Shown here piece by piece: positions 4,424 through 42,604 of a stretch of 64,000 bases of DNA. The stretch lies in sequence record PZ019084.1; one strand, given 5' to 3'. How positions within the stretch are numbered: the stretch's first letter is position 1; the number at the start of each line of letters is the position of its first letter. A program made the translations under genes and the position numbers. Source of the stretch: a phage. The notes beneath the pieces are model-generated. The model saw only the letters and a list, made by a program, of their open reading frames with translations. It was not told the DNA's origin and searched no databases.

Positions 4424-4573
4424 TTACTGCATGACTGTGATAACTGTCATGATAACACGTTGAATTCCGAACGCAAGAAGACCTCCTGCTACGGCAGGAA
4501 CAACACCTAAACCCGCCAGTAAAATGCCACCAGATACTAATGCAGCGCTTGTAATACCTATGAATGGACTCAT
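4424..4573 (-). CDS. small hydrophobic protein (~49 aa, below ORF-track cutoff)
   Basis: ATG overlaps gene 52 stop (ATGA); translation MSPFIGITSAALVSGGILLAGLGVVPAVAGGLLAFGIQRVIMTVITVMQ is one TM-like helix. Confidence 0.4.
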   Translation of the reverse strand: MSPFIGITSAALVSGGILLAGLGVVPAVAGGLLAFGIQRVIMTVITVMQ

Positions 4574-5898
4574 TTGATTTCCTCTAAATCTTTGGTGTAT
4601 TCTGTAACTACATCAGTAGTTTTCCAATATTCGTTTTCTTCTTTCTTAGCTTTAGCTTCTTCAGCAAGTTTCTTTGCTTCGTCGGAAGTCATATGAAAAA
4701 TATTCATTCCAACTAGTTTATCAACATAAGAAGAATACATATCAATTTTAGAAAGTTCTTCGGTCAGTTCTTTGCGAGTTTTACCTTGCACAACAATTTC
4801 ACCTGAAATTACTTTCTTAATGAAATGTGCCTTGGCAAAGGCTAAACGAAATGCTGATTCAGTTTCTTTGATTTTGTTATCAATTCGTTTTTGGACATAA
4901 GTTTTACGAACTTCAACGAAGTCTTTAATTAAATCAACTACGTTATCGTAAACTTGTAGTTTTCCTTTCTCATTAATAACGGTAATATTCTGGGAACGAC
5001 GCTCAATCAACCCGAAGTCTTTCATGATTTTTGCATGGCGTTCTTCTTCGTTATCACTCAAAGAGTATTCTTTGCGGAATTTAACTTTAAAGCCAAAACC
5101 ATGCTCACCACAAGCATCATCCCATGTAATGAAGCCTTTATCTTCAAGCGGGTCTAAGATTTTACTCACATAAGTTTCACGATCATACTTATACGGAATC
5201 TCAGTGATATTCATTTGAGTTCGTGAAGTAAACTTGTACGTTCCACGAATTTCATATTGACCGTCAATTTCAACGACTTCACCGCGAAATTCTGGGAATT
5301 CTACCTTCGGTTTAGTTACTTTCTTTCCTTGAAGAGCTTGTAGTACAGCTTTCTTGACAGAAGAAACACTATGAGGAAGAATGTAAGTTGCATAACCAGT
5401 TGCAATACCGGAAACACCATTAAGAAGAACGGTAGGAATAATAGGCAAATAGAAAGCAGGCGGAATGTGTTCTTTATCTTGATGTACCGGAGCATATTCA
5501 GTATCTTTATATACGTTATAGAAATTTTTACTTACACGAGCAAAAATATAACGACTTGCCGCTGCTTTTTGAACAGTACGAGAACCAAAGTTTCCTTGAC
5601 CATCTAACAAAGGAAAGTTATTATTCCAAGTATTAGCCATCAAAGCCCCCGCGTCTTGCGCAGAGTTTTCGCCATGATGATATCCAAGGTCCGCTACACC
5701 GCCTGCAATAGAAGCGAGTTTGTGAAACTTATCTTTATTTCCTCGTGCCAAATCAAGAGCTCGAGCAATAACAAATCGTTGAACTGGCTTAAATCCATCA
5801 ATCATATTTGGAATAGCACGATTTTCAACCGTGTACATAGCATAAGCCAGTGCTTCATTATCAATGATACTTTTTAAATCGCGATTGTTCAGTTGCAT
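4570..5898 (-). CDS. 52: DNA topoisomerase II medium subunit (GyrA-like)
   Basis: 442 aa with breakage-reunion domain; position motA-52 as in T4. Confidence 0.9.
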   Translation of the reverse strand: MQLNNRDLKSIIDNEALAYAMYTVENRAIPNMIDGFKPVQRFVIARALDLARGNKDKFHKLASIAGGVADLGYHHGENSAQDAGALMANTWNNNFPLLDGQGNFGSRTVQKAAASRYIFARVSKNFYNVYKDTEYAPVHQDKEHIPPAFYLPIIPTVLLNGVSGIATGYATYILPHSVSSVKKAVLQALQGKKVTKPKVEFPEFRGEVVEIDGQYEIRGTYKFTSRTQMNITEIPYKYDRETYVSKILDPLEDKGFITWDDACGEHGFGFKVKFRKEYSLSDNEEERHAKIMKDFGLIERRSQNITVINEKGKLQVYDNVVDLIKDFVEVRKTYVQKRIDNKIKETESAFRLAFAKAHFIKKVISGEIVVQGKTRKELTEELSKIDMYSSYVDKLVGMNIFHMTSDEAKKLAEEAKAKKEENEYWKTTDVVTEYTKDLEEIK

Positions 5899-7131: not shown

Positions 7132-7350
7132 TTATTTTACACCATTCCAAATTGTTTCAACCACAGATTTTAAGCCATTTTGGTGAATATCCATTCCGAC
7201 AACTGCCATCAAATAGATTCCAACTACAACTGAACCTAAGGCAAAAATCAGCATGAAAATGAATAAAGCTGGAAAAATATTATCGAAAAACCATTCAATA
7301 AATGTAAAAGCACTGCGTTTACGCTTCATATTTTCCTCACATAAATCCAA
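7132..7350 (-). CDS. small membrane protein
   Basis: 72 aa with central hydrophobic helix (FPALFIFMLIFALGSVVVGIYLMAVVG). Confidence 0.5.
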   Translation of the reverse strand: MDLCEENMKRKRSAFTFIEWFFDNIFPALFIFMLIFALGSVVVGIYLMAVVGMDIHQNGLKSVVETIWNGVK

Positions 7351-7450
7351 AGTAAGCGTTTAATACATCAATCATTAAAACGATTGGGAATATACTCAAA
7401 ACTACTAGTATTATAACTACATTCCATATAGCTTTAACAATCTTTTTCAT
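7337..7450 (-). CDS. small membrane protein (~37 aa)
   Basis: ATG at 7450 preceded by SD ggagg and an early promoter; MKKIVKAIWNVVIILVVLSIFPIVLMIDVLNAYFGFM; ORF-track form (to 7585) reads through the promoter. Confidence 0.4.
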   Translation of the reverse strand: MKKIVKAIWNVVIILVVLSIFPIVLMIDVLNAYFGFM

Positions 7451-7476
7451 TTTCTGTTCCTCCGTAGTTGATAGGG

Positions 7477-7509
7477 TAATAATACCACAGAGGAACAGTC
7501 TTGTAAACA
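7477..7509 (-). promoter_or_regulatory. T4-type early promoter
   Basis: minus strand GTTTAC (plus 7503-7508), 18-nt spacer, TATTAT; belongs to the repeated promoter/5'UTR cassette. Confidence 0.55.
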
Positions 7510-7693
7510 ACTTTTTTAAAAATATTCGTAATAAATGTGAATACCAACTACTACCGCTGAAACTTGTGCAACCCACCACGCACAAGCAATAAGTACAGAA
7601 TTCAAAATTTTCATAATAACCTCATCACAAAAGTAAATACTAAACAAATCAATGGAATACTAATTAACCAAACAAAACACCACCACAACGAAC

Positions 7694-7966
7694 TCATAGT
7701 TCAATCTCAGCGATTTTCATTTCATTACTATTAATAGCCGCTTTAAGACTATCTGAAAGAATTACATTCCAGTGGTCATTCATATGACCATTAACTAAAC
7801 GTGTAATTTCTTCGGGAGTTGAAAAATAAGGCGTATCAGACTCCCAGTGCGATAACCCTAAGCGAGTATAAATCATACCTTCATCATCGCTAGAATATTC
7901 AACTGACACAAACTCATCAGTTATTTTATGTTTAGCGTAATAAAATTTAAATTTCATTTTACTCAA
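7694..7966 (-). CDS. hypothetical protein
   Basis: 90-aa ORF. Confidence 0.5.
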   Translation of the reverse strand: MSKMKFKFYYAKHKITDEFVSVEYSSDDEGMIYTRLGLSHWESDTPYFSTPEEITRLVNGHMNDHWNVILSDSLKAAINSNEMKIAEIEL

Positions 7967-8169
7967 TAATCCGCTAAAAGATCGACGATTGCATCACGAA
8001 GACACTTATTCGCAATACGCTTAAGAGCAATTTCAGTTTCTGGAGCATTTTGAATAATCATTGAATTCAATTCAGCCTCAGCAAACTGAAGTTCTTTAAC
8101 TAATTCAGCTTTATATTTTCCTTGCCCTTTCTTAGCTTTTGCTCGTTTTAATTCAGCTGTAGTAAACAT
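7963..8169 (-). CDS. hypothetical protein (~68 aa)
   Basis: start set at ATG 8169 (MFTTAELKRAKAKKG...) downstream of early promoter and SD ggag; longer ORF-track form reads through the promoter. Confidence 0.5.
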   Translation of the reverse strand: MFTTAELKRAKAKKGQGKYKAELVKELQFAEAELNSMIIQNAPETEIALKRIANKCLRDAIVDLLADY

Positions 8170-8201
8170 TTTATTCTCCAAATCCGTATCAGTTGATAGT
8201 T

Positions 8202-8234
8202 GTATAGTACCACAGTCCTTGTGGTATGTAAACT
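8202..8234 (-). promoter_or_regulatory. T4-type early promoter
   Basis: minus strand GTTTAC (plus 8228-8233), 18-nt spacer containing inverted repeat accacag/ttgtggt, TACTAT (plus 8204-8209). Confidence 0.55.
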
Positions 8235-10066: not shown

Positions 10067-12244
10067 TTAGGCCGCAAGGGCCTTCATAGTTTTAGCGATT
10101 TGGGAAACTTCATCATCACTTAAAGAGTTGCGATAACCGATGAAGTCGGAAACAATACGGAATTTCTTGGTAAACTCAGCAACCATTTTATCACTGTTTT
10201 TTAAAGCATTACGTGACAATTCATCAAAAAGATTAGTTACGGTCCAGATGTCATGACCGATGGTATCTTTTCCACCATTGAAATATACACCCCGCAATGA
10301 ACTAACCATATTACCAAGGCGAGTATATTCTTCGGAAACTTCATCTGTACTGAAATATTTCATCATAAAATTAAGTTCAGGATACTTAATAATTTTATCA
10401 ATATATCGCTGAGCTGAACTTGAATAACCTACATACTTATCATAATCTACATCGTCAAAAGCATCTACATATAAATCACGTAGAGTTTCAAAAATACATT
10501 GACACTGGCCGAGTTCTTTTACCTTTTTCTGCAAAAGCGGACGAATAACATAAAATTCATTAATGCCAATAATATTAGCCATACGAGTCAAAATACTCGT
10601 AGATGGATGACAAAGCGATGTAGTACCATCCATAGAGAAAATATCAGAACGATGCATATACGCTACATAACCAGTAATTTCATCTGCTTCTGACGTAAGT
10701 GTAAACAGTTCCTCTTTTTCCCAGCGCCCGTCTTTAATTTCAAACTTAAATGCAGTAGCAGCTTTAGGACGAGGAGCTGTACTTTTTACTGCCTTTGGAA
10801 TATAACTTTTAACTAAAGCTTCAATTTCTGACAAATAATGAATGTTAACTTCATCACTTTCAAACATTGCCATAATATCAGGGAGTAAATCAATCTGCGA
10901 TTCTACTTCCGGATTAATAAACAAAAGGCGTTCATTGTGATGAATATTCAAAGTGTTATTAAATTCACTATCATCTAACGCGCGTGCTAATCCACGGACA
11001 ATATTAACACGATTTTTAGTATTATCAATAACAATATTAATTTTTGTCGTATTAATACCAAACAGACGATAGCTTGATGCAACGGCTGAAGTTTCATGAC
11101 TTTGCTTAATGCGTTTCAGTCGAGGGTCAAGATTTACTTCATACACAACCCCTGCATTGCATAACTTACTGTCAGGTTCAAACATGCTCTGCATCTTTTT
11201 ATATGACAGATTTTTAGTCGTGAATTTGACTGAATTGCTAATCATATAATCTCGAGCAGAATATCCCATCTTCATCAATTCACGGTATGTATGACGAGGA
11301 GATGTAGATTCTTTAAATCGTTTTACATCTTCATTGAATGCCTTCTCACTAAGCTCTTTAACACGCTCAATAATATTTTTACGAGTACGATCATCTAGTG
11401 AAAGAGCCTCGCGCGATGGAGCAATATCAAGTGAACCCATTGGAAACTTAATATAATTCACTTCATTGCGAATGCTTAACCAATTACGGTCTCTAATAAC
11501 ACCTTCGATAGGATAAACAATGCCGCCATAGATAGCATACAATCCACCACGATCGGGCCAGTATCTTTCTGGATTTACGCCGTAATAGTCATCAAAATCT
11601 GGAAAATAATCAATTTCGCGGTCAAGACCATTAATGATAGCCAAATCTTTGAATGGTCGCATGATATAAGAAACTTCATAAGCAAAGTTTCTAAAGTCCT
11701 TTTCTTCAACTGGAACTACAATTTCAATACCAGTTTTATCGTCTGGACCCATTTCTTTTACGAATGTAGGTTTAATTTGCGGACCATCACCATCCATGTA
11801 AGCTACATAACCACGAATTTCACCTTTATGATATGAAGTAATACTAAATGTATCAGTATAACTAAACGGAGATTTAGAACCTAAACCAAATCCACCAATG
11901 AAATCATTAGATTCAGCCTTAGATGAACTAAAGTATGAATTATACAACCCAGGAGAATTATCATCACCCTGAATATCAAAATCGCTCATACCTGGACCAA
12001 AATCTCGGCAAACAAATCGCGGATCTAATCGTCCTGGAACTTGAATGATAAATTTTTCAGGATTTCCATTAAGAGCATGGGCATCAATCATGTTGGTAAT
12101 CAATTCACGGACTACTGCGCGAATCTTGTTTGTATACAAATCAGATGACAGAATTTTGAATACTTTAGGAGATGCTGTGATGCTAAATGCCTTTGATTTA
12201 GAACCATTGCCAAGAATTGTTTCTTTTTCAGTGGTGATAATCAT
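10067..12244 (-). CDS. rIIA: rIIA protein
   Basis: 725 aa, same length as T4 rIIA; GHKL-like N-terminal region. Confidence 0.9.
10069..10083 (-). other. GC hairpin (GCAA loop) between rIIA stop and rIIB SD
   Basis: aggccgcaagggcct abutting rIIA stop, followed on the mRNA by aataaggaaaatt ATG. Confidence 0.45.
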
Positions 12245-12254
12245 AATTTCCTCA

Positions 12255-12458
12255 TTAATTCATATTGCGTTTAATAACTTCAGCAACTTCTAGTAATTCA
12301 TCTTTAGTTGCGGTGTCGGATTGAATTTTATCTCTAATATCCTTAAAGCGGTTTTTAAACTCTTCGGCTTCTCCCATATCGAAAAAGCGTTGAATGATTC
12401 TATATTCTCGATGAACTGCTTTATCAAAAAGTTCTAAATTTACTCTATATGATTTCAT
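12255..12458 (-). CDS. hypothetical protein (rIIA.1 position)
   Basis: 67-aa ORF; early promoter immediately upstream. Confidence 0.55.
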
Positions 12459-12481
12459 TTCAATATCCTCATTTGCCCAAT

Positions 12482-12514
12482 TAATTATACCACATCCTTG
12501 TGGTAAAGTAAACT
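12482..12514 (-). promoter_or_regulatory. T4-type early promoter
   Basis: minus strand GTTTAC (plus 12508-12513, overlapping gene 39 stop), 18-nt spacer, perfect TATAAT (plus 12484-12489). Confidence 0.6.
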
Positions 12515-14330
12515 ATTGGCTCATCCATTCTTTACGAAGGTCAGCATTATCTCCCATGAGCATTTCAAAAAGCTCTTTCCAGTTCTCAGGAAGTTTAACA
12601 ACATCATATACTGGGTTTTGAATCATCTCACGATATTCAGATTTTTCCAAAGAGCCAAGTCCCTTAATATAACGGATGCTATGTTTAGGTAGAGCATCCT
12701 TGACACTCTCATATTCAGCGACTGTATAAAACCATTCTTGTTTTTTACCGACCTGAGCGATGATTACAGGAGTTTTGACGAAGCGAATTCTTCCTTGATC
12801 AAACAGTTCTGGCCAATTACTAAAAAATCCGAGCAGAGAAGGATAAATGCTCCCTAGACCATCATGGTCAGCATCAGTCATAATAGCAATATTATGATAA
12901 TTCAAGTTTTCAGCTTTTTCACCAAGAACTAATCCAGTGATTGCGCAAATGTCAAACAGTTCTTTGTTTTTAAGCATATCAGCATATGACATACCCCAGC
13001 TATTAAGAACTTTACCACGCAATGGATAACCACCATGAAGTTCTTTATCACGAACATCAATAAGATATCCGATAGCGGAATCACCCTCAGTCAAGAAAAG
13101 AGTAGTGTCAGCATCTTTACCACAAAGATTCGCTTTAATATGTTTATGAACCTTAGCTTTAGAAGCCTTTTTAGCTGCTTTAGTTTCTGCTGCTTTTTCT
13201 GCCGCCAATTTACGAGCCAAGGCAGCTTCAATGATTGGCATTAAAATTGCTTCATTATTTAAAATAGCGCGTGAAATCTTTTTAGCATCAAGCTGAATAT
13301 GACTACGAATTTCACCAAAAGGAGAAGTCAAACGCTCTTTAGTCTGAGAATCAAATCGCATGTTTTTCATATCACGAACAAACATAACGATAGTCAAACA
13401 TTCTTTAACACGTGCTTTAGTTACATCAATTTTGAACTTGCGTTTGATTTGTGGAATAAGGTCTTCACAAATATCATCCATAACACAGTCAATATGATGG
13501 CCACCATTCTTAGTATGAATGTTATTGACGTATGTTAATTGACGAAAACCATCAGGTGAACGACCAACCGCAATAGAACAATTTTCTTGTTCTTGAACGA
13601 TAGCATGCTCATCATATTGGCGTGCATATTTCTTAAAATTACCCTGAACCTTTTTACCGTTAAAGGTAAATTGAATATCAGGATAAACTACTGCAAGCGT
13701 CTGGAGACGATCCAGTGTAATGTCAAGATAAACTTGAGATAGCTCATTAGTTTCAAATGACATAAAATCAGGAATGAAAGTAACACGAGTTCCTTTCCAT
13801 TTTCCAGGAATAGTTTCCCATGATTTATTTTCCATGCCATTTGAACAACGAACTACAATATTATTTTGACCGTCGCCAGTTTCACCGACAAACATCACAG
13901 AAAAAATGTTAGTTAAACTAGAACCAACACCATTCATACCGCCAGTGACGCGTTCTTTATCATCACCAAAGTTACCACCTGCTTTTGGAATAGTCCAGGC
14001 AGCAACAGGACCAGGAATTTCTTCACCAGTAGGTGTTTTAACCATCGCTTGTGGAATACCACGACCATTATCTTCAACTGTTACTTGATTGTTTTTAATA
14101 GTAACATTAATTTTATTTGCGAATTTAAACTTAGTACGAATACCTTCATCTACTGAGTTATCGATAATTTCATCAATAAGCTTAACAAGACCAGGTACAT
14201 ACTGAACACTTTCCCATTTACCAAACAGAAAGCGCTCATGCATTTCATTAGCAGAAGAGCCAATATACATGCCGCTACGCTTTTTGATATGTTCAATATC
14301 GCTCAGAATTTTAATTTCATTCTTAATCAT
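12513..14330 (-). CDS. 39: DNA topoisomerase II large subunit (GyrB-like), fused 39+60 form
   Basis: ~605 aa single ORF with ATPase N-terminus and TOPRIM C-terminus; ORF track begins one codon earlier at GTG 14333. Confidence 0.9.
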   Translation of the reverse strand: MIKNEIKILSDIEHIKKRSGMYIGSSANEMHERFLFGKWESVQYVPGLVKLIDEIIDNSVDEGIRTKFKFANKINVTIKNNQVTVEDNGRGIPQAMVKTPTGEEIPGPVAAWTIPKAGGNFGDDKERVTGGMNGVGSSLTNIFSVMFVGETGDGQNNIVVRCSNGMENKSWETIPGKWKGTRVTFIPDFMSFETNELSQVYLDITLDRLQTLAVVYPDIQFTFNGKKVQGNFKKYARQYDEHAIVQEQENCSIAVGRSPDGFRQLTYVNNIHTKNGGHHIDCVMDDICEDLIPQIKRKFKIDVTKARVKECLTIVMFVRDMKNMRFDSQTKERLTSPFGEIRSHIQLDAKKISRAILNNEAILMPIIEAALARKLAAEKAAETKAAKKASKAKVHKHIKANLCGKDADTTLFLTEGDSAIGYLIDVRDKELHGGYPLRGKVLNSWGMSYADMLKNKELFDICAITGLVLGEKAENLNYHNIAIMTDADHDGLGSIYPSLLGFFSNWPELFDQGRIRFVKTPVIIAQVGKKQEWFYTVAEYESVKDALPKHSIRYIKGLGSLEKSEYREMIQNPVYDVVKLPENWKELFEMLMGDNADLRKEWMSQ

Positions 14331-14382
14331 CACTTATCCTCGTTTGGTTTCGGGAATATTATACTCCGGTAATCATAAAGCT

Positions 14383-14400
14383 AAAGGCCCGAAGGCCTTT
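14383..14400 (-). other. GC hairpin (CGAA loop) immediately after stop of lipoprotein gene
   Basis: aaaggcccgaaggccttt. Confidence 0.4.
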
Positions 14401-14672
14401 TATTTAAAACGGATAGTCGAATCCTTGAAGAATAGACCAGAACATACAGTTCCTTCTACTTTCTGCCCGGTAGGTCCAATAGCACGAAATCCAGTATGTT
14501 GGAAATCATTTTCAGAGCAACCGAACCAATTATATCCAGTGATTTCAATATTAGTAAAACCACTTGAAGACAAAACTTTGGTTGCATTATCAGCATCAGT
14601 ACATCCTACTAAAGATACTGCTAATACTAATGCCGCGATAGAACGATTAACATATTTCATAATTTCACTCAA
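14400..14672 (-). CDS. putative lipoprotein
   Basis: 90 aa; signal peptide with lipobox LVGC (AALVLAVSLVGCTD). Confidence 0.55.
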   Translation of the reverse strand: MSEIMKYVNRSIAALVLAVSLVGCTDADNATKVLSSSGFTNIEITGYNWFGCSENDFQHTGFRAIGPTGQKVEGTVCSGLFFKDSTIRFK

Positions 14673-15036
14673 ATTTAATGGCTTGAAGAAGACTAATAAT
14701 TCTCAAGCGGCTTCTTTCATCTTTAACCGTAAAAGAAAGAGGGTCGCCAGATTTCATAGTGATGGTGCATTCAAAACTAAAATCTTCAGGAACTTCTTCG
14801 AAGAAGTCAAATTCTTCATCATATATTAGAACATTACTCTGAAAACTGTGAAGAATTTTTCCGTCATTTCCAGATGCTGTACTAATCATTGTAACATTAT
14901 TACCTTTCATATCTTCAACGATAAATTCGCTTGTAGATATTACGGCATTAATAGAACCATTCCTATAAATAGAAGAAAGCAGATATTTCTTTTCTTCACC
15001 TTCACGAACACGATATTTCTTACCGATTTTAAACAT
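14665..15036 (-). CDS. hypothetical protein
   Basis: 123-aa ORF. Confidence 0.5.
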   Translation of the reverse strand: MFKIGKKYRVREGEEKKYLLSSIYRNGSINAVISTSEFIVEDMKGNNVTMISTASGNDGKILHSFQSNVLIYDEEFDFFEEVPEDFSFECTITMKSGDPLSFTVKDERSRLRIISLLQAIKFE

Positions 15037-15852: not shown

Positions 15853-16032
15853 TACAATTTCCTCATTAATTGAACAGTGGAGCGATGCGTTTCAGAAGAG
15901 TCAGTACCTTTGGCAAATTTTCCATTTTATTCTCCAAGTTGTTTTCTATATCAGTAGTTGATATTGATATAGTACCATAATCAACTACTGATGTATATAG
16001 TTTTATGAAAAAATTTTAAGCTTTATGCAAAT

Positions 16033-16452
16033 TTATGCTAAAGCTGCTTCGCACCATTTTTTAATTTGGAATTCAGGAACTACCATGAACTGGCCTGCAA
16101 AAACAATATTGTAGAGCTTGACGCCATCTTCTACCCAACGGTCCGAAATAAAACCAGCGACTTGATTCGTTGTCCATGGAGTTCCATCTGTTGCTGCCGC
16201 AATTGTGAATTTATGGTCTTTTACAACTAAAACTGAAGAACAAAGTTTCCATTTAAACGCGCTTTCTTCTGGCTCAATGAATTGGCTTGAGACATAACCA
16301 ATGTTACCATCAGCGTCACGAACTTTAACCTCGTTACGACCAAAAACTGGATCACTTACAGAAAGAACTTCAACCAGCTTTCCTGCAACTTTAGAACGAG
16401 AAGCAACGGATACATATACGTAATCACCGGTAGATAGATTTACAATATTCAT
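16033..16452 (-). CDS. MotB-like paralog
   Basis: 139 aa; N-terminal KOW-like segment and C-terminal DRWVEDGVKLYNIVFAGQF motif shared with adjacent 162-aa ORF. Confidence 0.5.
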   Translation of the reverse strand: MNIVNLSTGDYVYVSVASRSKVAGKLVEVLSVSDPVFGRNEVKVRDADGNIGYVSSQFIEPEESAFKWKLCSSVLVVKDHKFTIAAATDGTPWTTNQVAGFISDRWVEDGVKLYNIVFAGQFMVVPEFQIKKWCEAALA

Positions 16453-16468
16453 AATAATTCCTTAAACT

Positions 16469-16957
16469 TTATGCATAGAGAGCTTTGCTATAGTGTTTAA
16501 TCCAGCTTTCAGGAATGACTTTATATGTTCCTAAAAATACCACATTATACAGCTTAACACCGTCTTCTACCCACTGGTCGGTAATGTATGCACACATAGC
16601 ACGAGTATAAACAGCCGCTCCATCATCTTTGATAAATTTAAATTCACAAGGAGCAATGAACTTAATAGCCTGACCGAGTTTCCACTTAAAGTCTACACCT
16701 ACATGCGAAGTATCAATCGTTTCAATTCCTTTAGCAGGAACAGCTTTCAAAAACGCAGACTCAAGAAATTTCGCACGAACATAGCCAAACTGAGGTTTAG
16801 ACTTTCCATCTTTAGGAATGATACGCACTTTTACTTCAGAATCTTCATCTTTAACACCGTGTTTAAGCTGAATGCTTACAATTTCAACCAATTTTCCTGC
16901 TGCTTTAGAGCGGGATTTATCAGATACACGAGCTAATTCACCAATATTAATAATCAT
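16469..16957 (-). CDS. motB: MotB-like protein
   Basis: 162 aa, same length as T4 MotB; position upstream of dexA; early promoter directly upstream. Confidence 0.55.
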   Translation of the reverse strand: MIINIGELARVSDKSRSKAAGKLVEIVSIQLKHGVKDEDSEVKVRIIPKDGKSKPQFGYVRAKFLESAFLKAVPAKGIETIDTSHVGVDFKWKLGQAIKFIAPCEFKFIKDDGAAVYTRAMCAYITDQWVEDGVKLYNVVFLGTYKVIPESWIKHYSKALYA

Positions 16958-39537: not shown

Positions 39538-39566
39538 AATTTTATAACTAATTTAATAAAGCAATT
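39538..39566 (-). promoter_or_regulatory. probable MotA-dependent middle promoter for gene 45
   Basis: minus strand TTGCTTTA (MotA-box consensus, plus taaagcaa 39557-39564) about 12 nt upstream of TATAAAAT. Confidence 0.5.
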
Positions 39567-39954
39567 AACGATTAAAATCAGCAGCAATTGTTTCCGCAAC
39601 AATTTGAGCAGCAACAATTAGACGTTCATCTGCATTACCGCAATAATCATCTTCAAGGCGTTCACCACATGAAGTCATAATAAATTTAGCACCAGCATTT
39701 AGAGATTCTGCCGTATGTTTGCGCATCAGTTCAATCCATTTATCACTCACTTCACGATCGATGGCTTCATAATACGCATGACGAGCAGGTGCAGATTTAA
39801 TTTTGCTCTGAATAACTTCCATTGCGTTATCAGAAAGAGACAAAACCCATGCTCGACGAATTTTATTTTGGTTTTGTGGATTTGAATCAGAACGCACGTG
39901 TTTTGGCTGAATATCTTTTACATCAACAGTATAATTCACAGTAATTTTAGTCAT
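39565..39954 (-). CDS. rpbA: RNA polymerase-binding protein RpbA
   Basis: 129 aa; length and position upstream of gene 45 as in T4. Confidence 0.65.
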
Positions 39955-40206: not shown

Positions 40207-40923
40207 ATGAATTATAAACTAATTTATGAAAAGTTAATCTCTAATGCTAAATCTCGAAAACTTGATTGCTATACTGAATCTCATCACATTATACCACGCT
40301 GTTTAAATGGTAGCGATGACGCTTCAAACTTAGTAGATTTAACACCAGAAGAGCACTATGTAGCTCATCAACTTTTAGTAAAAATTTATCCTTCTGAACC
40401 AAAATTAGTCTATGCTGCTAACATGATGACAGTTTCTACGAAATACGCTAAACGTAACAATAAAACTTTCGGCTGGATTCGTCGTAAACTCTGGGAAATA
40501 GAAAAGAATAAAGAGTTCTCCCAAGAGACACGAAAGAAAATGTCCGACGCAGTAGCTAATAAAGCAAGACTAACTTGTCCACATTGCGGTAAGTCTGGAT
40601 TAAGCGGGAATATGAATCGATGGCATTTTGATAACTGCCCAAATCACCCCAATCCTAAAGTTAGACCGCCAATGTCTAAAGAACACAGAAATAATATCTC
40701 AAACGGGCTTAAAGCAATCGTTCTTGAAGAAACATCATGCGAATTCTGCGGAATGATAGGCAAGAAATGCGTTATCGCAGCGCATAGAAATTTCTGCAAG
40801 AAAAATCCAAATGGACGCAAGAAAACTGAAAAGACTGGTACTTGCGTCCATTGTGGTAAAGTTACCACGTTCGGAAATTTATCAAGATGGCATAATGATA
40901 ATTGTAAATATAAACCTAGCTAA
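40207..40923 (+). mobile_element. free-standing HNH homing endonuclease gene
   Basis: 238 aa; N-terminal HNH motif (ESHHIIPRCLNGSDDASNLVDLTPEEHYVAHQ) and repeated CxxCGK...RWHxDNC zinc-ribbon modules; opposite strand to flanking genes. Confidence 0.8.
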
Positions 40924-42604
40924 TCTTAGCTAAACTAAATCTACCAACTTTTTCCATTTGAATGTGCTGACCATATTCCTGTGGGTCATGGTCTTTATGC
41001 GAAATTATGAAGAAGTTGGTATCCTTCAAACCATCTAAAATTTTAGCCACATTTTTAATACCTTCAGCATCAAATGCACCGTCATACACTTCATCAAGAA
41101 ATAAACAACTTATTTTAACACCTGAAACTTTTTCAGCAATATCACGCCAAGTAAATAAAAGAGCAATATCAATTCGTGCTTTTTCACCTTGACTAAATGA
41201 AGCATAACTAAAATCTTCACGACCACGGGATTTAATTGTCTCATTAAATTCTTCATCTAATGTAAACACATAATCCGCTTCCATTATTTTAAGATAATGA
41301 TTAATCTGCTTATTAAATAATGGAATGTACTTTTTAATAATAGCACCTTTAATACCAGAATCTTTGAGCATATCAGTCAAAATTCCTCTATGGTATTTTT
41401 CCATTACTAAATTAGTTTTTGTCTTAACAATTTTATCAAGTTCTTCTTGAAGCAGTGCTATTTCATCAGCATGGTCAATAAACTCAGATGATGCTTTTTC
41501 TATAGCTGCTTTAACTTTTTTAGCTTTATCTACAGTCGTGATTAGAGATTGCTTTTTATTGCGAATATCATTCGCCAACGTCTGCTGGGTTTTAATATTA
41601 TCTCGGTATTCATCAACGAGAACTTTTAAATTATCACGATGTGTTGAAAGCTGTTCAAACGAATGCGTGCATTCAGAAACTTTATCTTTAATTTTAGAAA
41701 CAACTTTATCACCGGAACTTAATTGTGACAAACAGGTTGGACATAATCCACCTTCGTGATACATATTAATGACTTTATTATACGAGTCAATTTTTGATTT
41801 AATTAAAAATGCTTCTTGACCGATTTTATTAAATGCATCAGTCGGGTCTTCATCCAAAACAATATTAACTAATCTTTCATTAGCTTCTTCTATTTCCGAT
41901 TTTAGCGTTCTAGCTTCTTTTGCCAAATCATCATACATATTCTGCAGACGAGTAAGGTTATCACCGGTTAATTTTTTCTGACGTTCAACGTTATCATTAT
42001 ATATTTTAATTTGTTGGATAATACTATCTTTTTTAACATCAAGCACTTGGTTTTGTGAATTTAATTCACGTATTAGTGCTTTATTAAGCTTATCCATTTC
42101 AGCTAATGTTCCTACCTCGAGTAGGTCTTCGACAAGCTTTCTTCTTGCAGGAGTGGATAAGCCCATAAAAGGGGTATATCCAGCCGTGCCGAGTACGACG
42201 ATCTGTTTGAAACTGGCGTATGACATTCCGATAAGCTGTTCAAATTCTGCTTGGAAATCTTTACTGCTGGCAGATTCATTAAGACGTGTACCGTTAACGG
42301 TGATTTCGAAAACGTTTGGTTTTTGTCCTCTTTTGATATAGTACTTTTTCTCATCATATTCCATCCACAGTTCAACTAAAAGTTCTTTCTTATTTGTACT
42401 GTTTATTAATTGGCCTTTCTTTACATCACGAAATGGCTTGCCAAAAAGCCCAAATGTGATGGCTTCTAACATAGTAGACTTACCACCGCCATTTCGCCCA
42501 GTAATAAGAGTTTTTTGAACCTTATCTAGTTGAATGTCAATAGGATTTCCACCTACTGACATTATATTTTGATACCTAACTCGGTTTAGTTTAAAATTCT
42601 TCAC
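40916..42604 (-). CDS. 46: recombination endonuclease subunit (Rad50/SbcC-like)
   Basis: 562 aa; N-terminal Walker A GRNGGGKST, coiled-coil middle with CPTC zinc hook, C-terminal signature/Walker B. Confidence 0.9.
   Translation of the reverse strand: MKNFKLNRVRYQNIMSVGGNPIDIQLDKVQKTLITGRNGGGKSTMLEAITFGLFGKPFRDVKKGQLINSTNKKELLVELWMEYDEKKYYIKRGQKPNVFEITVNGTRLNESASSKDFQAEFEQLIGMSYASFKQIVVLGTAGYTPFMGLSTPARRKLVEDLLEVGTLAEMDKLNKALIRELNSQNQVLDVKKDSIIQQIKIYNDNVERQKKLTGDNLTRLQNMYDDLAKEARTLKSEIEEANERLVNIVLDEDPTDAFNKIGQEAFLIKSKIDSYNKVINMYHEGGLCPTCLSQLSSGDKVVSKIKDKVSECTHSFEQLSTHRDNLKVLVDEYRDNIKTQQTLANDIRNKKQSLITTVDKAKKVKAAIEKASSEFIDHADEIALLQEELDKIVKTKTNLVMEKYHRGILTDMLKDSGIKGAIIKKYIPLFNKQINHYLKIMEADYVFTLDEEFNETIKSRGREDFSYASFSQGEKARIDIALLFTWRDIAEKVSGVKISCLFLDEVYDGAFDAEGIKNVAKILDGLKDTNFFIISHKDHDPQEYGQHIQMEKVGRFSLAKIS

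Follow-up and report, generated by a model that had tools for sequence, protein, structure and literature searches.

An unsplit gene 39 at the site of the T4 MobA element in a Tequatrovirus phage

The window analysed here, a stretch of 64,000 nucleotides of phage DNA (record PZ019084.1), carries an ordinary one-piece gene 39, the gene that phage T4 divides into genes 39 and 60. Its open reading frame (ORF) almost certainly encodes, in unsplit and uninvaded form, the large subunit of a Tequatrovirus topoisomerase of type II, with GyrB-like ATPase and TOPRIM domains; no observation made in the analysis speaks against this. The finding itself is already known; unsplit genes 39 of the T2/T6 type have been known since the 1980s. 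That gp39 of T2 and of T6 equals gp39 and gp60 of T4 combined is a description of long standing (PMC11461880, PMC2988022), and a mobile-element origin of the T4 split and of the translational bypass has been published (bioRxiv 10.1101/2022.08.31.505936).

The gene 39 reading frame and its product

An earlier sequence-only reading had placed a single ORF of about 605 aa at 12513-14333, with no strand given. Direct reading of the ORF confirmed this and assigned it to the minus strand, where an uninterrupted run of 606 codons, counted from a GTG, spans 12513..14333 and yields 605 aa when counted from ATG. With a window G+C content of about 36.5%, some 6.9% of random codons should be stops, and our own calculation from this G+C gives a probability of about 1e-19 that a run of 606 codons stays open by chance. 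The ATG at 14330 is the codon directly after the GTG at 14333. The upstream features that bear on the start and on expression of the gene are as follows.

12513..14330, minus strand: gene 39, encoding in unsplit form the large subunit (GyrB/ParE-like) of the phage's type II DNA topoisomerase, 605 aa and a stop codon (from the ORF, Pfam matches and identity to T6 and T2)
14341..14337, minus strand: Shine-Dalgarno sequence GAGGA, read directly, 6 nt from ATG 14330 and 3 nt from GTG 14333
14400..14383, minus strand: UUCG-tetraloop hairpin AAAGGCC-TTCG-GGCCTTT between 39.1 and 39, read directly
14383..14376, minus strand: MotA-box-like tAGCTTTA, read directly, with the hairpin upstream and a 12-nt spacer downstream
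14363..14358, minus strand: TATAAT after the 12-nt spacer, read directly

ATG 14330 is most likely the start of gene 39, with a predicted product of 605 aa, because of the Shine-Dalgarno spacing and because annotation of the orthologues in ECP2301 and T2 begins at the ATG (coding sequences of 1818 nt with the stop). The GTG at 14333, at a spacing of just 3 nt from GAGGA and upstream of the start annotated in the orthologues, was rejected. The signals within 14358..14400 make a plausible candidate for a T4-type middle promoter of gene 39, an assignment made by reference to the known T4 middle-promoter consensus. A generic promoter and terminator scan, which included sigma-70 sites, returned sites no more numerous than in shuffled sequences and was not used as evidence. 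A 10-mer of the hairpin, GCCTTCGGGC, recurs in the T4 bypass take-off stem-loop, probably by coincidence. Upstream of gene 39 lies 39.1, an ORF of 90 aa (14400..14672, minus strand) without a Pfam match, whose N-terminus resembles a lipoprotein signal, MKYVNRSIAALVLAVSLVGC, with Cys behind a hydrophobic stretch; T4 39.1 is annotated at only 65 aa, though the DNA of the two phages aligns with three gaps.

Pfam models for HATPase_c (E=1.9e-9), DNA_gyraseB (the transducer; E=1.5e-13) and TOPRIM_C each matched the gene 39 ORF above the curated cut-off. The N-box and G-box motifs of a GHKL ATPase are found at residues 54-62 (EIIDNSVDE), 87-93 (DNGRGIP) and 130-134 (GGMNG) of gp39, and the QTK loop of the transducer at residues 329-331. 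The two signature motifs of the TOPRIM domain were located by motif position and, for the second, by codon table.

13074..13088, minus strand: EGDSA, the TOPRIM catalytic glutamate motif, codons 415-419; the T4 counterpart is on gp39
12858..12875, minus strand: DADHDG, the TOPRIM acidic DxDxD motif, codons 486-491; the T4 counterpart is on gp60, directly before the bypass gap

Both motifs occur in the same ORF, so that the TOPRIM domain is complete on one chain, with all catalytic motifs intact. The 605-aa chain unites the GHKL ATPase, the transducer and a complete TOPRIM domain in a single polypeptide.

In a search of the PDB, 602 of 605 residues (99.5%) were identical between the ORF and chain 8ylu_C, with ORF residues 2-606, numbered from the GTG, lying on chain residues 1-605; the second-best chain was an artificial T4 gp39-gp60 fusion made for cryo-EM, which matched in two stretches. 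Chain 8ylu_C is gp39 of phage T6, the large subunit of a two-subunit topoisomerase II (PMC11461880, Nat Commun 2024); together with gp52 it has been shown to be active, and its cryo-EM structure has been solved (8ylu and related entries; PMC11461880). T6 gp39 differs from the window protein by three conservative changes (D511E, Q527H and V543A). T2 gp39 (YP_010073651.1) is identical at 601 of 605 residues, with no indel and four conservative differences (F70L, T173D, D511E and V543A), and its gene differs from that of the window at 66 of 1818 nt. Common to all three are a length of 605 aa, the order of domains, a position between 39.1 and rIIA.1, and pairing with gp52. By analogy with the 99.5%-identical T6 protein (PMC11461880), gp39 of the window phage should be enzymatically active in the ATP-dependent relaxation and decatenation of DNA, an expectation carried over, like that of MobA sensitivity below, to an allele 3-4 aa away from those of T6 and T2.

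The partner subunit and the downstream neighbour of gene 39 are encoded on the same strand.

4570..5898, minus strand: gene 52, coding for the DNA-cleavage subunit (GyrA/ParC-like; 442 aa; from the ORF and Pfam DNA_topoisoIV, E=1.6e-76)
12255..12458, minus strand: rIIA.1, directly downstream of gene 39 (Pfam T4_RIIA1, E=2.2e-33)

The syntenic counterpart of gene 52 in phage F13076 is annotated 'DNA topoisomerase II'. By sequence, gp39 and gp52 constitute the predicted two-subunit enzyme of the T2/T6 type, and would assemble, as in T2 and T6, into an A2B2 ATP-dependent type IIA topoisomerase. The genes around the ORF follow each other as is usual in T-even phages: 52, ndd, denB, rIIB, rIIA, rIIA.1, 39, 39.1, 39.2, goF, cef, motB, dexA, dda. 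Since rIIA.1 adjoins gene 39, the gene occupies the place that gene 60 holds in T4, beside rIIA.1 and rIIA.

T4 break points and the empty site of the MobA element

For comparison with T4, we used the locus in NC_000866 (1-9000), with gp39 of 516 aa and gp60 of 160 aa joined over the annotated 50-nt gap. Protein alignment paired T4 gp39 1-473 with ORF residues 1-473 at 98.3% identity, and T4 gp60 27-160 with ORF residues 472-605 at 94% identity. Codon by codon, divergence from T4 begins after Ala473 (…GEKA), and ORF residues 477-605 correspond to T4 gp60 32-160, with near identity over gp60 47-160. The alignment proposed in the sequence-only reading was thus carried out; it places the break after Ala473 and finds the gp60-equivalent C-terminal region present in the ORF. 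The further statement, that one ORF spans both gene 39 and gene 60, is right as to its colinearity with gp39 1-473 followed by gp60; it needs amendment for the 43-aa gp39 tail and the 31-aa gp60 head, which the ORF lacks, and for the residues ENL at 474-476, which are present in the window ORF and have no T4 counterpart, having been lost in T4. At the DNA level the two loci match in three blocks, which define the following features.

Window 14662-12913 against T4 5661-3911: DNA match at 95.3% identity
Window 12904-12859 against T4 2899-2854: DNA match of 46 nt at 76% identity, where T4 has the copy of the target that belongs to the element
Window 12848-12205 against T4 2793-2150: DNA match at 97.7% identity
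12849..12912, minus strand: parental segment of 64 nt (ORF nt 1419-1482), which starts with the final base of codon 473 and runs to codon 494 (from the DNA break points against T4)
12855..12860, minus strand: Gly491 (GGT) and Leu492 (CTA), adjacent, at the exact site of T4 GGA[50 nt]TTA (from codon comparison)

After Ala473, T4 continues with a 43-aa gp39 tail (FEEKEDGEW…RKNL), a stop, mobA/60.1 and the 31-aa gp60 head. It then reads NYANVAIMTDADHDG, a recoded version of the window's NYHNIAIMTDADHDG, followed by GGA, the 50-nt gap TAGCCTTCGGGC…TTATTGGA, and TTA GGT TCT. At the same place the window reads GGT CTA GGG AGC, with nothing between (12860..12849). The absence of a bypass element, as the sequence-only reading had it, is borne out by the contiguity of GGT and CTA at codons 491/492, and the 50-nt gap has no meaningful match in the window. 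T4 makes two polypeptides for an enzyme and core sequence that the window phage keeps as one chain.

Published anatomy of the element gives an insertion at aa 466-473 with a 64-nt deletion. In clade 1, that of T4, the element's 3' end lies 9 nt beyond G491, and the recoded copy, 'HomR', shares 67-81% identity with its parental counterpart (Manning and Atkins, bioRxiv 10.1101/2022.08.31.505936). The break points between window and T4, together with the 76% identity of the middle block, agree with this anatomy. A mobile element of ~1.1 kb, encoding the HNH homing endonuclease MobA, landed within the TOPRIM-coding part of gene 39 in T4 and a minority of its relatives and split it into 39 and 60. 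It also extended both new ends, swapped 64 nt for its recoded copy and brought the 50-nt ribosome-bypass gap. The window has the empty site of the element, with the T2-type target kept.

A check for endonuclease remnants, also proposed by the sequence-only reading, found nothing left of mobA or 60.1 at gene 39. Queries against the whole window were T4T MobA (272 aa; tblastn), the 1097-nt element (blastn) and the 50-nt gap (blastn-short). Full-length T4T MobA gave no tblastn match in 12200..14700, and its sole match in the window was a paralogue at 40207..40554. With the 1097-nt element, the gene 39 locus showed just the expected HomR match of 46 nt at 76%, and the gap had no significant blastn-short match anywhere in the window. 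A 10-nt match to the gap at 14396..14387 (E=1.9) reflects the shared GCCUUCGGGC tetraloop hairpin upstream of gene 39 and was rejected as chance. Protein alignment placed no part of the ORF on the element-encoded extensions, T4 gp39 474-516 or gp60 1-26. The T4 reference has a peculiarity of its own: the mobA region of NC_000866 (2803..3910) is 11 bases longer than in T4T, RB59 and other T4 isolates (1108 nt against 1097 nt, at 98.6% identity), and for this reason the annotation breaks mobA up into a 37-aa fragment and 60.1, where T4T has an intact MobA protein of 272 aa.

The paralogue belongs to a free-standing HNH endonuclease ORF of 238 aa (40207..40923, plus strand), which runs opposite to its neighbours between rpbA (39565..39954, minus strand) and gene 46 (40916..42604, minus strand) and shares 8 nt, tail to tail, with the 3' end of gene 46. 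Identity to MobA is 38% over the first 109 aa of its product (tblastn E=1.6e-16); the C-terminal half contains three repeats rich in Cys and His, of the kind CPHCGK…WHFDNC. The ORF occurs in just 60 of 504 related phage records, where it is annotated 'homing endonuclease'. By sequence, then, the window phage has a gene 39 without MobA, yet carries a sporadic MobA paralogue elsewhere.

Distribution and direction of change

Of 494 related phage records, 452 matched a 201-nt query centred on the junction contiguously, at a coverage of at least 80%, among them T2, RB27 and RB32 (annotated '60plus39'); the other records matched one flank only. The T4-type insert was found in 43 records, namely T4 strains, RB59, vB_EcoM_112, HY03, PEC04 and a few others, and a 2.5-kb region around the gene was contiguous in 508 records. 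The unsplit gene is the rule among the relatives, at about 90%, and the T4 arrangement is the exception.

Outgroups carry the same arrangement. In bacterial ParE and GyrB, and in the N-terminal half of eukaryotic Topo II, the order GHKL-transducer-TOPRIM is colinear with the whole ORF: ParE (4juo_C) 39-656 aligned with ORF residues 7-604, and human TOP2B 59-686 with ORF residues 11-604, at a sequence distance from the phage ORF that corresponds to E values of about 1e-48 to 1e-59. The phage topoisomerase relaxes DNA and does not supercoil it. An ancestral unsplit form, presumed in the sequence-only reading, is well supported, because the TOPRIM of the outgroups (ParE, GyrB and Topo II) is contiguous over the junction and the extra DNA of T4 is a mobile HNH-endonuclease element. 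The term 'fused' used in that reading is a misnomer; it was the T4 gene that was split, and the window gene never was.

An unsplit gene could also arise by secondary re-fusion, a 'hit and run' in which an ancestor had the MobA element, lost it and rejoined 39 and 60. Manning and Atkins describe clades that lost the endonuclease and bypass cassette after splitting, some of whose fused ORFs keep element-derived extensions (bioRxiv 10.1101/2022.08.31.505936). Whereas those published cases retain extension sequences, the window ORF has none. Its length is exactly that of T2 gp39, without an indel, and the 64-nt segment is of the parental T2 type and not the element's recoded copy. Precise recombination with an uninvaded allele would be traceless and would yield the same present-day state, but the near identity to T2 suggests placement among uninvaded alleles, and re-fusion is in our estimate extremely unlikely. 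The chance that the long ORF is instead an artefact or a pseudogene, such as an assembly that collapsed a split locus in a phage really carrying T4-like 39 and 60, is virtually negligible. No observation favours it, the same contiguous arrangement recurs in 452 independently sequenced records, no catalytic motif is damaged, and a T6 protein of 99.5% identity has been expressed, found active and solved in structure. Gene 39 of the window is accordingly treated below as an unsplit allele that was never invaded.

Such an allele has a predicted susceptibility. The parental 64-nt segment, swapped for the MobA element in T4, corresponds to the region of T2 that holds the MobA nick site, and codons 468-497 are identical to those of T2 except for one synonymous base, GGG in place of T2 GGA at codon 493. 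The published account describes nicking of T2 by MobA in the target region, copying of element, split and gap into T2 in mixed infection, and shielding of the invaded gene by the gap from more nicking (bioRxiv 10.1101/2022.08.31.505936, which credits the transfer into T2 to its ref. 19). Because the T2-type target sequence is kept, we infer that MobA should be able to cleave the window allele and, in mixed infection, to convert it to the split form. It is very unlikely that the GGG codon 493 or the 3-4 aa changes confer resistance to MobA homing or an altered enzyme, which would make this an immune 'empty site' variant.

Differences from T4 beyond gene 39 and placement of the phage

The sequence-only reading had concluded that the phage is not T4. 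This stands: the element is missing, the flanks are only 95-98% identical and there are several other indels. The best whole-region matches, at 96-97%, are the Tequatrovirus isolates Salmonella phage F13076, Citrobacter phage CrRp10 and Shigella phage SH-1. Window segments 14663-15033 and 16030-16461 have no T4 counterpart, and T4 7236-8219 is missing from the window. The first of these segments holds an ORF of 123 aa (14665..15036) without a Pfam match, and at 16033..16452 lies a second motB-like gene of 139 aa (Pfam motB, E=6.4e-20) that adjoins motB (16469..16957); T4 motB.1 and motB.2 (T4 7236-8219) are absent. The 123-aa and motB-like ORFs also occur in relatives, ECP2301 and F13076 among them; all these differences are typical T-even indel polymorphisms.

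For annotation, the locus is gene 39, DNA topoisomerase II large subunit, 605 aa from ATG 14330, with gp52 as partner. It is a textbook empty site of the MobA/bypass cassette and a possible recipient in homing experiments, for which many alleles, those of T2 and T6 included, are already available. The unsplit allele places the phage in the MobA-free majority of Tequatrovirus.
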